64,000 nucleotides of DNA from positions 83,926 through 147,925 of the forward strand of contig NZ_BMEC01000004.1 in the NCBI RefSeq assembly GCF_014636295.1. The letters are read 5' to 3'. This DNA comes from Marivirga lumbricoides. GTDB lineage: Bacteria > Bacteroidota > Bacteroidia > Cytophagales > Cyclobacteriaceae. The stretch's first letter is position 1. Each line of letters begins with the position of its first letter. Of the stretch, positions 42,001 through 48,000 are shown one piece after another. A program made the position numbers.

Positions 42001-45000
42001 ATGCGTTTGGTTCCTTTACATTAAAAAACATGACCGACCTAAACAATATATTTCCGGATACTGTACAGATAATCCCCCTGGAAAATTGTTTTGCAGACCA
42101 TGTGGCTGAAATAAATGGGAACTTTCACTATCTGCAGTTCCCATCTGCCCCAATTACATCCACCAGCTGGTTATCCGAACCTTTATACATTGCAAGTACC
42201 GGTATGGGCTTTAACCGACCCTTCACCTCTGGAGAGGAATTTAGGCGATTAGATAAGGTTAGTAAGCAATTTGATTCCATCATTGTATTTGATAAGATTA
42301 GTCCGACTAAACTTATTAAAAACTAAACTCACTTTAATTGTAATCGAATCCATTTACGTGCAATATTTGTAGCCATATACAGCATGGTTCTATATGTACA
42401 TTAAACCTCACCATTAACTTAATTCACTCAATGAAAATACCCCACATCACAGCCCTGCTACTTCTATTGTTCTCCTGTGGAAAGAATGAAAACAAGACTG
42501 ATAAAAAGAATGATAAAGTAGCTGTTGCGGAAATAGTAATACCCGAATTCCAATCAATTATAGACTCTGCAGCAGTGCAGGGAGCCATTTTAATTTACAA
42601 CAAGGCTACCAATACCTACTATTCAAATGATTTTCGCTGGGCAAATAAGGGGCATTTGCCTGCTTCTACTTTCAAAATAGCCAACTCCATTATAGCACTT
42701 GAAACAGGAATAGTGGAGAACGACAGTACACTTTTCGAGTGGGGTGGTGAGGAGCGAGCAATGGAAAGTTGGGAGCAGGACTTAGTATTCAGAGAGGCTT
42801 TTCACTTTTCCTGTGTACCTTGTTACCAGGAGGTAGCAAGAGAAATTGGTGTAGAGAAGATGAATTTCTATCTGGATACACTGAATTATGGTAATATGCA
42901 GGTAGATTCCACCAATATTGACACGTTCTGGCTGGAAGGAGCCTCCCACATCACACAGTTTCAGCAAATAGACTTTCTCAAGCGCTTATATCAAACGGAA
43001 CTGCCAATTTCGGAACGAACGGAAAAGATCATAAAAAAAATGATGGTGATAGAAGCGAACGACCAATTCCAATTGAGTGGAAAAACAGGCTGGTCTAACA
43101 GCAATGGACATAATAATGGTTGGTTTGTAGGGTATTTAGAAAGCAACAACAATACCTACTTCTTCGCCACCAACCTTGAGCCTCAGCCACAATTTGATAT
43201 GTCTGGCTTTGCTGAGATCAGGAAAGAATTGACAATGCAGGCATTTAAGCAGATGGATATTATTGATTGAAATTATCAATTGAGCGGTCCTGATTTATCT
43301 TCATCGAAGATAATCCCTTTAAATATCTGGGAGCAATTATTTTCAAGGAGCTAATGGTTTTAACCTTGAAAGATTGAAAATATAGCAAGGATTTGCACGA
43401 GATTCCTCAACTCTATTTTTGAGCTGTATCGACCCATAGGGAAAGGAGGTAAAAAATTTATCGGAGATTAATAGGGGGAGTTAAGAAGAAGGGAAAGATT
43501 TGTTGCTTGCGAATCAGGAGCCTGCCAACTCTTTGGCTGGGCGAGTTTCCACCGCCATGTTTCGTGTCTCACGAAACAGATAAACGCAAATGCCTGCATA
43601 TAACGCAAATTTGACATATGATTAGTGTATCATAAGAACTCAATCCCCAGGCTGGCAGGCTATCCCGTCAATCTCAATTTGATAATGATATGATAAATAG
43701 TAATTTGTGAAATAAATGTAGCTGCTTACGAGATTTCTCCCCTCTATTTTTTAGAGAGAGGGGAAAATTTATCGGAGATAAATAGGGGTGAGTTAAGAAC
43801 TGTCGAAGACGAATCCTGAGCCTGACAGCCCTTCGGCTGGGTGAGTTTTAGAAATGAAGAAGTTTGGCGCAAAAAAGAACAATCTTACTAGCAAGAGAAT
43901 TAAGGAAGGCCTCTACAGAAGCTGAGAATAAACTATGGAAGTATTTACGAGGTAGAAAGTTCAATCAACTTAAATTTTTAAGGCAGCATCCAATTATTTA
44001 TGGTGGAAATACTGCCAGGGAAGATTTTTTCATAGCTGACTTTTATTGTCATGAAAAGAAATTAGTAATAGAGTTGGATGGAGGTATTCATAATGATGAA
44101 AAGCAATATGACAAAGGAAGAGATCAGATTTTAAATGAACTCGGAATTTATGTGTTGAGAATGGAAAATAGCATCATGGAAACTCCGGATCAAGCTTTAG
44201 AAAAAATTAAGGAATTTATACGTTCAAAAGGTTTATAAGTGATTTTGTAGGATCAGCACTGGGCCGGATATAGTGAAAAGATAATAATAATTACCTCAGA
44301 TGAGAACTCATCCCGTCAACCGCCAACTGGCGGTCGCCACCCTTCTCTTCAAAAAGAGAAGGGAATAGTAGAAGCAATCAGCCTCAATTTAATAACGATA
44401 TGATAAATAGTAATTTGTGAAATAAATGTAGGTGCTTACGAGATTTCTCCCCTCTACTTTTTAGAGAGAGGTGAAAATTTATCGGAGATAAATAGGGGTG
44501 AGTTAAGAACTGTCGAAGACGAATCCTGAGCCTGACAGCCCTTCGGCTGGGTGAGTTTTAGAAATGAAGAAGTTTGGCGCAAAAAAGAACAATCTTACTA
44601 GCAAGAGAATTAAGGAAGGCCACTACAGAAGCTGAGAATAAACTATGGAAGTATTTGCGAGGTAGAAAGTTCAATCAACTTAAATTTTTAAGGCAGCATC
44701 CAATTATTTATGGTGGAAATACTGCCAGGGAAGATTTTTTCATAGCTGACTTTTATTGTCATGAAAAGAAATTAGTAATAGAGTTGGATGGAGGAATCCA
44801 TAAAGAACAAAAACAATATGATGAGGGAAGAGATCAGGTCTTAAATGAACTCGGAATTTATGTGTTGAGAATGGAAAATAGCATCATGGAAACTCCGGAT
44901 CAAGCTTTAGAAAAAATTAAGGAATTTATACGTTCAAAAGGTTTATAAGTGATTTTGTAGGATCAGCACTGGGCCGGATATAGTGAAAAGATAATAATAA

Positions 45001-48000
45001 TTACCTCAGATGAGAACTCATCCCGTCAACCGCCAACTGGCGGTCGCTACCCTTCTCTTCAAAAAGAGAAGGGAATAGTAGAAGCAATCAGCCTCAATTT
45101 AATAACGATATGATAAATATTAATTTGTGCATTGAATGTAGATGCTTACGAGATTTCTCCCCTCTATTTTTTAGAGAGAGGGGAAAATTTATCGGAGATA
45201 AATAGGGGTGAGTTAAGAACTGTCGAAGACGAATCCGGAGCCTGACAGCCCTTCGGCTGGGAAATTTAGCTATTGATTGGGTGATTCATAAAATGGAAAT
45301 TTCAATAGGCAATGAAAAGTGTTTAATTTTGTATAAAATTCCATTGAAAATAAGACCCTACATACCTTCGGATAAAGCAGCTGTTCTTCACTTGTTTGAT
45401 TTGAATACTCCTCAATTTTTTGACGAGACAGAAAAAGCAGGTTTATTTAGTTACCTCGAAAATGAAGTAGAAGATTACTTTGTGGTGGAAGAAAAAGATA
45501 AGTTAATTGGGGCTGGTGGCATTAATTATGAGCTGCAGGCTAAAACTGCGGTGATTTCATGGGATATTATCGCTCCAACTCATCACGGGGAGGGGATAGG
45601 TAGAAAATTGATGAAGCATAGAATTGAGTTTATCCGTAAAAAGGCGGACATTGATAAAATTGTAGTAAGAACCTCGCAGCACACTTACCTATTTTATGAA
45701 AAGATGGGGTTTAAACTCCTGGAAGTGAAAAAAGATTATTGGGCAGAAGGCTTCGATTTGTATTACATGGAGCAGCCTACTAAAAAAGATTAATTTTGAT
45801 TTTATCAATAAATTCAAGGTTTTTCTGGTTAACCTACGTTAACAACCGTCTCTCCGGTTGTACATCCTTCTCCTATTAAATGCTTCCACATTTTTTTTCT
45901 TCTGTGTTTTACGCTCACAGAAAAATGCTTAATAATGGTTTCAAATCATCCATAAAAGCACTCAAAAATTCCGAACTCCAATTAAGGTAGATAGACTACC
46001 GCTTTAGGGTGGTACTCTACATTGTGTTGCTTTATTGTTCTCTCTAGTTTTACTGAAATAAAAATAACTCAATCAAATTCAGAAACTTATGAGAACCTTT
46101 GAAATCATTTTACTACTTGCTATTACCATTCTTCCCTTTTTCAAAAGGAAAGTGCTTTTACATTTTAAAGCTAATTATGTCTTGATTTTTCTCGCTTCAT
46201 TATTGGCTATGCATTTACTTTTTGAAGGTCTGCGCTGGCAGATGTTTCCTGCTTATGTACTGCTGTTTGTACTGGCATGGAGAATAAAAGTGGTGGATGC
46301 TTCTCAACCAGCTCGTTTAAATTTTTGGAGAGGTAGTGGCTATTTCGTTTTCGTGCTTGTAGCTGTTATAGCATGGGTACTTCCCATCGCTTTACCCGTT
46401 TTTACTTTGCCGGAACCTAGGGGGAATTATAAGGTTGGCACGCAAATACTTCATGTTAAAACTGATAAAGCAGAGGAAATTACAAAAGACCCCAACGATA
46501 AAAGAGAATTTCTGTGCAAGATTTGGTACCCAAGCCAGGCTGATGTATCCAATTTAGCAGGAGAAAGCTACCTTGACCAGACTGGTAGAGAGGGTTTTGC
46601 GACTAAATATGGCTTACCGGCTAATGCGCTCAACTACCTGGATTATGTGGATACTTATGTGTACCCAAAGATTCCAGTAGCAGAAGGCAAATTTCCCGTA
46701 TTGCTATTTTCGCATGGCTATGGCTCCAATGCTACAGGTTACTATGCATTGCTAACTGAGATTGCAAGCCAGGGCTATATCATCATCAACATGAACCATA
46801 CCTACGAAAGTTTAGGGGCTACTTTTCCGGATGGTAGTAAGAAGTATTTTGATTATCAGTTTCAGCAGGAGGTTACTGATTGGAATGCGGAATTGATGGA
46901 TCCTATGATAAAAGCCTTTGAGGAAGGGGTGGAATTCGAGAAAAGACATCAAATCGCCCGGCCTGCTATCAAGGATTATTATGAAAAAAATATTCAGGCA
47001 AGGTGGGCGGATGATATAGTAGATGTATTAGACTTATTAGACCAATGGAATGGCGAAGGTTTTTTGAAAAACAAGCTTAATCTTGATAAAATAGGTGTTT
47101 TCGGACATTCGGTAGGAGGGGGCACAGCCGGGAGAGTGGCCATGCAGGACAGTAGAATAAAGGCAGCAGCTAATTTGGATGGCATCCAATGGGGCAAAAA
47201 GATTGATACAGTGTATCATTTGCCTTTTCTTTTTATTTCTGCTGATTGGCCTGCCGAGCATATGGATATTAACTCTCATGTGTACCTGAAGAAGAGCAGC
47301 GACTATTTTTATGATGCCAGGCTGCTTAATTCGGGCCATCCCAACTTTATGGATATTCCTTTTCTGGTGACTATTAATGCGGTTAATCAGTCAGGAGATA
47401 TTGACCCCGCATTGGGTACAGAAATAACTACTAAACTGGTGACTGCTTTTTTCAATCGACACTTAAAATCTTCTGCCGATACGGATATGGAAGGTATAGC
47501 AAATGAATATGATTTACTGGAGATGAAGGTTTACAAGGGTGATTCGATTCAATAAATCATAAGAGAAAGATGTATACCACTTTGGTGAATTCAGGGTGGC
47601 ATACTTTCTATGCAGTGTCTATGTAAACGCATTGTGAAGGCCTTTTATTAAAGAAAAAGGGACAACTATGGAGGGTAGCTGTAAATAAACAAAGCTTTTT
47701 ATCTGGCTCTAGTTTATTTTCATTGGTAAAAGATAAACATTATTTTTTTTACGTAAAGGATATTAAACGACTCTAGTTATGGACTACAAAAGTATCTACA
47801 TGCGATATATTATTGTATTAACAGTTCTATTTTCATCTTGTGTTGAGAAAGAAATTTCCAACAAAGATAAGCTCTCTGGAATTTGGGTTTATTCAAAACA
47901 GGTAAACGGTTCCAATTCAGATATTTCTGACACATTATCTGTTACAGAATATGAGTTCATATCTGACACAAGTGGACTTTTGTTCAATTACGAACTTTTC

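Follow-up and report, generated by a model that had tools for sequence, protein, structure and literature searches.

A 64,000-nucleotide stretch of the Marivirga lumbricoides genome (contig NZ_BMEC01000004.1, positions 83,926 to 147,925; referred to as the window and numbered from its first letter) contains a 710-bp tandem duplication carrying two DUF559 nuclease genes, each preceded by a leader that appears to be one arm of a palindromic DNA element of the BoxC/potential intrastrand triplex (PIT) type. We estimate a probability of about three in four that the duplication arose by unequal crossover between such elements, which flank DUF559 genes widely, and was followed by a later conversion event. 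An ancestor of M. lumbricoides would have carried one DUF559 gene between two palindromic repeat elements of ~200 bp. Unequal homologous recombination between these two elements would have yielded the 710-bp tandem duplication with n+1 repeat copies, the last of which would be the original element in front of a GNAT acetyltransferase gene. The reciprocal product would be a deletion leaving one element, which is the state seen in the related genome L007. A later short conversion tract would explain 46 nt in which the two genes differ. As far as the duplication is concerned, the lesson is modest, namely that the supposed truncated third unit is probably the ancestral repeat. The more interesting result is that the repeats seem to be of the BoxC/PIT type and that such motifs consistently adjoin DUF559 genes.

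A repeat search of the window located the starts of the direct repeat at 43668, 44378 and 45088. The spacing is exactly 710 nt in both cases, in agreement with the first-pass annotation of this DNA. The region 43668-45261 comprises 2.25 copies of the unit, and both DUF559 genes in it are intact. A site-by-site comparison of units 1 and 2 showed 96.7% identity over 884 nt and 21 nucleotide differences; the longest exact stretch common to both spans ~200 nt. Both open reading frames (ORFs) encode 124 amino acids and start with TTG as annotated; the products differ at 6 residues, which corresponds to 95.2% identity instead of the ~96% given before. The third leader copy was also recovered, with 174 nt matched and an end at 45261 rather than ~45256. 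Two additional leader copies, a diverged one at 43397-43560 and one at 48406-48558, supplement the earlier description.

The locus was compared among six Marivirga-type genomes (L002, L004, L005, L007, L008 and the window). A sigma-54 response regulator gene (37225-38622) and HlyD/MacB transporter genes (from 53605) are conserved as anchors, and the gene content between them is wholly different. L002 and L004 harbor a single DUF559 gene followed by GNAT, and the same small modules are found in the intergenic DNA on either side of DUF559. Given this single-gene state, the tandem arrangement is a genuine, lineage-specific DUF559 duplication. L007 (Marivirga sp. S37H4) lacks DUF559 and has one module copy directly upstream of GNAT. 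A class D beta-lactamase gene also accompanies GNAT and DUF559 in related genomes, in a different gene order (L002, L007). Since the element precedes GNAT in three relatives (L002 10575-10804, L004 1339-1507, L007 9553-9760), including the one without DUF559, the GNAT-proximal copy in M. lumbricoides appears to be a resident, older element that served as recombination partner. The view of a third unit truncated exactly at GNAT is thus not supported.

The middle leader turned out to be a hybrid. It is identical to copy 3 at 4 of 4 informative sites (44381, 44382, 44391 and 44396) and to copy 1 at 5 of 5 (44410, 44420, 44422, 44424 and 44527). Such a copy-3/copy-1 junction appears to be the signature of an unequal crossover and would place the exchange within 44397-44409. 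Outside a divergent patch discussed below, 6 differences were counted in 632 nt. Because of this divergence of ~1% the duplication is probably recent yet not brand new, and calling it fresh would be an overstatement. In all these respects the tandem duplication is an ordinary product of unequal crossover between flanking direct repeats: n genes are surrounded by n+1 repeats, the internal repeat is a hybrid, and single- and zero-copy states occur in related genomes. The sole unusual point is that the repeat itself is a potential non-B-DNA-forming element. The duplication may therefore be one product of a recombinogenic repeat-plus-nuclease module, because motifs of this kind have been reported to mark rearrangement-prone loci in E. 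coli.

Two independent, adjacent insertions of a mobile element composed of motif, DUF559 and motif could also place two genes side by side. Such an element would match the arms that bracket DUF559 head-to-head at 43735-43792 and 44302-44371, the same bracket in a Sphingomonas plasmid and in the L027 context described below, and a protein fold resembling that of a homing endonuclease. However, the repeat period holds to the single base, the duplication includes the AT-rich core lying between the elements, the middle core and leader form a clean copy-3/copy-1 hybrid, and no target-site duplication was seen. Insertion is therefore an improbable origin of the second copy.

The architecture of the element became evident when arm A, located downstream of DUF559, was aligned to the reverse complement of leader B. 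Both represent the same ~65-nt unit, which consists of the head AACTCAYCCC, a small hairpin with variable sequence and maintained pairing, and a pyrimidine/purine hairpin. The ~200-bp element is an inverted pair of these units around an AT-rich core. With an nhmmer profile, the 64-kb window yielded six full units, none of them outside the island between the two anchors. The small loop hairpin covaries between species; for 4 of 5 pairs, both sides have changed without loss of pairing. The leader of DUF559 copy 1 additionally has a long-form tail that ends 13 nt upstream of the TTG start; this long form recurs in L004 (1470-1505) and L017 (775-812).

A triplex motif was defined as a pyrimidine block, a Watson-Crick complementary purine block and a third block that mirrors the purine block in antiparallel orientation through G·G, A·A or T·A triads. 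In leader B1 these blocks are TTTCTCCCCTCT, AGAGAGGGGAAA and ATAGGGGTGAGT with the loop hairpin ATTTATC-GGA-GATAAAT, and the mirror between the third block and the purine block extends over 12 triads without a mismatch. In arm A they are CCCTTCTCTT, AAGAGAAGGG and GGGATGAGTT with the loop hairpin CCGCC-AGTT-GGCGG, giving 10 triads with 0 mismatches. The sequence GGGGTGAG mirrors the purine arm GAGAGGGG in antiparallel orientation except for a single A-to-T exchange, and fits the purine-motif intrastrand triplex rule. With 10-12 consecutive canonical triads and 0 mismatches, the B and A arms both fall under the general definition of a purine-motif PIT element.

BoxC/PIT elements have been known since the 1990s and are highly conserved. 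In E. coli they have been equated with the TMECO motifs, for which triplex formation was demonstrated in vitro (Holder et al. 2015, PMC4666352; earlier BoxC/PIT work by Bergler, Bachellier and Hoyne is cited therein). The BoxC/TMECO loci were more rearranged than control loci and frequently contained inverted pairs, and no transposase or integrase was ever found near TMECO. That study did not find a function, an origin or an associated mobility gene for these elements, and ycjD and DUF559 are not mentioned in it. The Marivirga motif resembles BoxC/PIT/TMECO in its pyrimidine block, complementary purine block and G/T mirror of the purine block with one A-to-T change, in its intergenic location, often as inverted pairs, and in the variability of the loci between close relatives; a version from Candidatus Kryptobacter even has the same TTA second loop. 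In contrast, the Marivirga blocks are CCCCTCT/AGAGGGG/GGGGTGAG instead of CCCTCNCCC/GGGNGAGGG/GGGNGAGGG, and the second loop measures 13-25 nt with a covarying hairpin in Marivirga and other Bacteroidota instead of 3 nt. Further differences are the tail-to-tail arrangement of the Marivirga arms around an AT-rich core and the number and distribution of copies, six full ones in 64 kb within a single island. In addition, the triplex is predicted here from the sequence.

The nature of the head became apparent from E. coli, where ycjD encodes the DUF559 protein. The motif situated 168 nt downstream of ycjD is TMECO no. 9 (1351204-1351239; Table 1 of PMC4666352) and satisfies the TMECO pattern. E. 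coli genomes have a median of 16 places with the ycjD-side element, and as many as 29. In E. coli K-12 (L037 2805-2865, ~1351.3 kb), the 3' end of ycjD was seen to be duplicated over ~50 nt, with the duplicate lying ~50 nt downstream of the gene and immediately ahead of the BoxC/TMECO motif. Of 5426 E. coli genomes, 3363 contain this fragment, none of them at more than two places; it is a small-scale parallel to the Marivirga duplication. Relics of the ycjD 3' end beside other BoxC copies were considered and rejected, as both places of the fragment lie at the ycjD locus.

Pyrimidine/purine/mirror motifs flank DUF559 in 13 of 13 independent contexts examined, which were chosen from homologue lists and not at random. 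These contexts cover Bacteroidota, Kryptobacter, alpha-, beta- and gamma-Proteobacteria, and cyanobacteria. In L024, a DUF559 gene (57% identity) between aminotransferase and tRNA methyltransferase genes has a compact element on each side. The same holds for the DUF559 gene between coaE and yjeF in L027, where the loop hairpin is entirely different. Four tandem copies upstream and four downstream accompany DUF559 in Candidatus Kryptobacter (L031), and A-type and B-type arms occur on both sides in L032. In the plasmid and chromosome collection, motifs were also located beside DUF559 of Azospirillum and Synechocystis B12 and beside NGO0050 of N. gonorrhoeae, the protein crystallised as 3HRL. Photobacterium shows an array of at least 16 motifs, and short C5-6/G5-6/G5-6 versions were found beside DUF559 in PCC 7002 and Pseudanabaena. 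On a Sphingomonas plasmid (L040 1986-2381), DUF559 and the motifs on either side of it lie inside the pnt transhydrogenase operon, inserted between its subunit genes.

A scanner requiring all three blocks detected 51 motifs in 15.7 kb near DUF559 and 34 in 190 kb of background elsewhere, which was mostly Marivirga sequence; shuffled sequence gave 1. The 34 distant motifs were for the most part continuations of the same arrays or belonged to the Marivirga island. The mirror rule is obeyed with 0-1 mismatch by the Marivirga A and B arms, L024, L027, L031, L032, Azospirillum, E. coli, Photobacterium, Sphingomonas and a peat contig. Moreover, the third block tracks the purine block by lineage, with GAGAAGGG accompanying GGGATGAG, GAGAGGGGG accompanying GGGGGTGAG, and GGGGAGAGGG accompanying GGGTGAGGGG. 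Thus, this class of motif consistently adjoins DUF559 genes across phyla, which suggests that the BoxC-type repeat and the DUF559 nuclease belong together. In the literature searchable to us, to which subscription-only papers do not belong, no paper linking DUF559 or ycjD to repeats was found.

Tentatively, and with somewhat less than even confidence, we propose that BoxC/PIT repeats and DUF559 form one genetic system across bacteria in which DUF559/YcjD is the missing protein partner. DUF559 may nick the motifs in a structure- or sequence-specific manner and thereby drive their spread and the instability nearby, similar to homing or to RAYT action; gene-less inverted pairs would then be non-autonomous derivatives. 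Alternatively, DUF559 may be a host enzyme that processes non-B structures formed by the motifs. Any action of DUF559 on the motif, and its direction towards spread or repair, is an inference. Some of the selfish-looking character that had been ascribed to DUF559 genes can be granted. Salmonella is reported to lack TMECO motifs, which abound in E. coli, Shigella and E. asburiae (PMC4666352). Among the best 120 YcjD homologues, those that carry names belong to Escherichia, Shigella, Enterobacter (many of them E. asburiae), Kluyvera, Klebsiella and relatives; Salmonella does not occur among them, in a database of which only part carries names. This phyletic agreement is suggestive and nothing more. 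If the adjacency found in the 13 contexts holds genome-wide, each of the two puzzles provides the missing half of the other, and the idea is directly approachable in E. coli with ycjD and its 23 TMECO sites.

Several points weigh against this interpretation of the locus and its repeats. The crossover call is based on nine informative sites, and the locus is represented by assembled sequence. The selection of the DUF559 contexts and the largely Marivirga background mentioned above also count here. The window does not contain the TMECO pattern CCCTCNCCC N3-6 GGGNGAGGG N3 GGGNGAGGG; its blocks are TCCCCTCT/AGAGGGGA/AGGGGTGA with a first loop of 7-9 nt and a second loop of 15-25 nt. The latter also exceeds the ITxF loop limit of 1-6 nt, although it is a self-folding hairpin. 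As it departs from the TMECO pattern and the ITxF limits through this long folded second loop, the Marivirga motif is regarded as a variant of the BoxC/PIT kind and not as a member, and the long-loop variant may form a triplex. In vivo dimethyl sulfate footprinting in E. coli revealed no triplex protection (PMC4666352). Furthermore, the element is confined to one island and is, as far as visible in 64 kb, not a dispersed high-copy repeat. For the divergent patch no donor was found, and both copies hold derived states in it relative to L002 and L004. An older duplication that was homogenised everywhere except in the patch is a possible alternative to a recent one.

It had been suggested that the leader might be transcribed as a small RNA or represent a toxin-antitoxin-like partner. 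A structured cis-regulatory RNA, or a small RNA or antitoxin partner of DUF559, is a reading with some attractions. In Marivirga the leader always lies on the coding strand, with a promoter-like TTTG-N19-TAATTTG sequence ahead of it and the start codon close behind, its hairpins covary, and G-U wobbles fit the + strand. Against this, no Rfam family matched the leader at the gathering score, in the window or the related loci, and nothing relevant appeared at E-value thresholds, and single-sequence folds of the leader gave z-scores of -0.3 to +1.1, no better than shuffles. The unit is also found inverted as arm A, downstream of genes, ahead of GNAT in a genome that lacks DUF559, and in both orientations in peat contigs. 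An RNA hairpin would leave the conserved third block, the mirror, with no role, and purine-motif triplexes do not form in RNA (PMC4666352). A role as RNA is thus improbable, and a DNA motif of the BoxC/PIT type is preferred.

A related ~130-nt element was observed in peat and other metagenome contigs (L009-L023). It has the same head, small hairpin, pyrimidine/purine hairpin and mirror block and is bounded by ~17-nt imperfect inverted repeats (AGACTTCTTCGGAAAAT ... ATTTATCGAAGAGGTCT). It was found in many unrelated intergenic contexts and in both orientations, and no DUF559 gene is located within these contigs. With regard to miniature inverted-repeat transposable elements, the leader element has long inverted arms; no target-site duplication was seen, and the copies lie in one island in Marivirga and in unrelated contexts in the peat contigs. 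The possibility that the ~85-nt spacer of gene-less units in L002 and L004 is a deletion derivative of DUF559 was dismissed, local alignment scores being no different from those of shuffles. Scanning a genome collection with a leader 20-mer gave a single chance archaeal match, and scans of metagenomes with the leader (B-arm) pattern and of viruses with the A-arm pattern gave no match. Exact-match look-ups of the window proteins and of P0001 yielded no record.

Both DUF559 ORFs match Pfam DUF559 (PF04480) with E=1e-28, and the profile score of 99.8 bits clearly exceeds the curated cutoff of 20.6. The NCBIfam model PRK09767 scored 68.7 against a cutoff of 218, so the protein of the window is a DUF559 member and not a YcjD equivalog. 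The sequence matches PDB 3HRL (E=6e-15), and an AlphaFold model (predicted local distance difference test score 88) has 3HRL as best fold match (TM 0.79 on target), followed by the catalytic domain of the homing endonuclease I-Bth0305I (3R3P). PADLOC returned weak matches to Vsr-like domains. D59, E70, D72, H76, D83 and R99 are invariant among 37 homologues, and all family-invariant residues are intact in both copies. The gene products are thus predicted Vsr-like PD-(D/E)XK nucleases that group with DUF559/YcjD/NGO0050. The DUF559 family is very large and consists of small nucleases; a structure has been solved and, as far as we know, no substrate is established, and we are not aware of a demonstrated substrate for any member of the small stand-alone subfamily.

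Caulobacter VsrA contains DUF559 and is tied to cytosine methylation (PMC12907096), whereas no methyltransferase is located nearby in the window. With the EDxHD homing endonucleases (I-Bth0305I, PDB 3R3P, PMC3239194) the proteins share the Vsr-like catalytic fold, and their small genes are likewise placed between unrelated housekeeping genes in different lineages. In contrast to these enzymes, DUF559 is not associated with an intron, an intein or extra DNA-binding domains.

The differences between the two units are strikingly clustered. Of the 21, 11 fall within the 46 nt of the patch 44085-44130, which is 24% divergent. Five of the six residue changes are within residues 77-90, namely N77K, D78E, E79Q, K85E and I90V, which according to the model are on helix 77-92 adjoining the E-x-D-G-x-x-H strand. 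Synonymous and non-synonymous changes are mixed, roughly half of the 11 being synonymous, and the spectrum (T, T, T, T, G, G, C, A, A, A, T) is not adenine-specific. The patch would therefore look like a short conversion tract from a donor that was not located. Of the two processes that had been favored over random drift, gene conversion is retained and diversification is not. Targeted diversification, by a diversity-generating retroelement or by positive selection, would account for five of six changes on one helix beside the active site, but the synonymous share, the base spectrum, the lack of a reverse transcriptase in the window, and the unchanged invariant D83 and R86 inside the patch make it very improbable. 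For the same absence of a reverse transcriptase and of adenine specificity a diversity-generating retroelement was rejected.

Expansion or mis-joining of a single DUF559 unit by the assembler is a concern in a short-read draft genome with a longest exact match between units of ~200 nt. Such an artefact is very unlikely because of the 21 differences between the units, the 24%-divergent patch among them, and because both alleles were deposited twice, as GCM10011506_14760/_14770 and as GAA5028371/GAA5028366, in two accession series and on two contigs; moreover, the hybrid middle leader is a biological feature and not a signature of collapse or expansion.

An integron-like cassette array with attC repeats or a REP/RAYT system has hardly any probability. 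Such systems are called to mind by the same-strand resistance-type genes (erythromycin esterase, class D beta-lactamase, GNAT) in an order shuffled between species and by RAYT genes in the same island of L005 and L008, but neither an integrase, IntI included, nor a transposase was found in the 64-kb window, the repeat has ~200 nt (attC, 57-141 nt) with independent local hairpins and by inspection no R''/R' GTTRRRY boxes or GTTRRRY/RYYYAAC pair, and the REPs beside the RAYTs of L005 and L008 are unrelated, with no module matches at those loci in BLAST searches. REP/REPIN-RAYT systems are similar in having short palindromic repeats, often as inverted pairs or clusters, that flank a single enzyme gene. 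They differ in that their enzyme is a Y1 HUH transposase, for which no gene exists in the window, and not a PD-(D/E)XK nuclease, and in that their repeat is a simple tagged palindrome and not a three-block mirror motif. The RAYT-like genes themselves (L005 3566-4218, L008 3594-4637) encode 183-aa Y1_Tnp proteins and are accompanied by inverted 26-29-nt REPs (GTTCCCGCCATGCTCCGCATGGTGGT) that are unrelated to the leader. The features of the locus are compiled in Table 1.

Table 1. Positions of the DUF559 tandem duplication, its repeat elements and adjacent features in the window
Feature	Position	Strand	Description
Hypervariable island	38623..53604	.	Between sigma-54 response regulator and HlyD/MacB transporter genes; contains all repeat-element copies found in the 64-kb window
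Class D beta-lactamase gene	42431..43270	+	NCBIfam bla_class_D_main, 271.8 bits (cutoff 250)
B0, old diverged leader-module copy	43397..43560	+	Two-part; ~73% identical to other copies
Segment duplicated at 48284-48558	43547..43820	+	276 nt, 91% identity; X hairpin module, long-form head, AT-rich core and most of leader
Tandem unit 1	43668..44377	+	710 bp; AT-rich core, leader B1, DUF559 copy 1, arm A
Leader B1, potential intrastrand-triplex motif	43735..43792	+	Three-block scan
Second, long-form tail of leader B1	43797..43850	+	Degenerate hairpin, then GAGCCTGACAGCC-CTTC-GGCTGGGTGAGTT
DUF559 copy 1, GCM10011506_14760	43864..44238	+	Pfam; predicted Vsr-like PD-(D/E)XK nuclease
Divergent patch	44085..44130	+	Partner 44795-44840; 11/21 unit differences
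Arm A, same motif on opposite strand	44302..44371	-	Alignment with reverse-complemented B arms; nhmmer E=1e-12
Tandem unit 2	44378..45087	+	Repeat search
Inferred crossover interval	44397..44409	+	Informative sites in middle leader
Leader B2, putative recombinant copy	44445..44502	+	Private substitutions at 44457 and 44472, weakening the hairpin
DUF559 copy 2, GCM10011506_14770 (identical to P0001)	44574..44948	+	Pfam, protein match
Arm A, second copy	45012..45081	-	nhmmer, three-block scan
Third AT-rich core and leader copy (B3; motif 45155-45212)	45088..45261	+	Orthologous elements before GNAT in relatives
GNAT acetyltransferase	45281..45793	+	Pfam; orthologue starts equivalent to 45347
Fifth leader copy (motif 48473-48530)	48406..48558	+	3' end truncated; no ORF directly after; part of 276-nt duplicate
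Solo head AACTCATCC and pyrimidine/purine hairpin	51330..51370	+	Downstream of TPR gene

A number of further observations were made in the window. The GNAT ORF is 5'-extended, with a GTG at 45281 or an ATG at 45293 as possible start, and its orthologues begin at the equivalent of 45347 (LKIRPY), after a TAATTTTG box. A 190-nt intergenic repeat, 94% identical between its copies, follows the fifth leader copy (48574-48762) and the TPR gene (51431-51620); after the second copy, the palindrome GCGCATATATGCG occurs three times in 51590-51690. The triplex scanner reported two small C5-6/G5-6 hairpin motifs in inverted orientation upstream of argG (1140-1175 and 1255-1300). Next to the sigma-54 regulator gene, the perfect palindrome GTCCGATATCGGAC followed by GTTT is conserved in three genomes (L002 9096-9109, L004 313-326, L007 ~9808-9821) and could be an operator or a terminator. 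The minus strand encodes the bacterial class A RNase P RNA (12349-12777, 181.8 bits) and a 1615-aa DUF3686 'ATPase involved in DNA repair' protein with DUF7902 and AAA domains (25989-34422). The latter gene is followed by 675-aa and 203-aa ORFs without Pfam match and then by PspA, a gene run that may constitute a conflict or defence-type operon.

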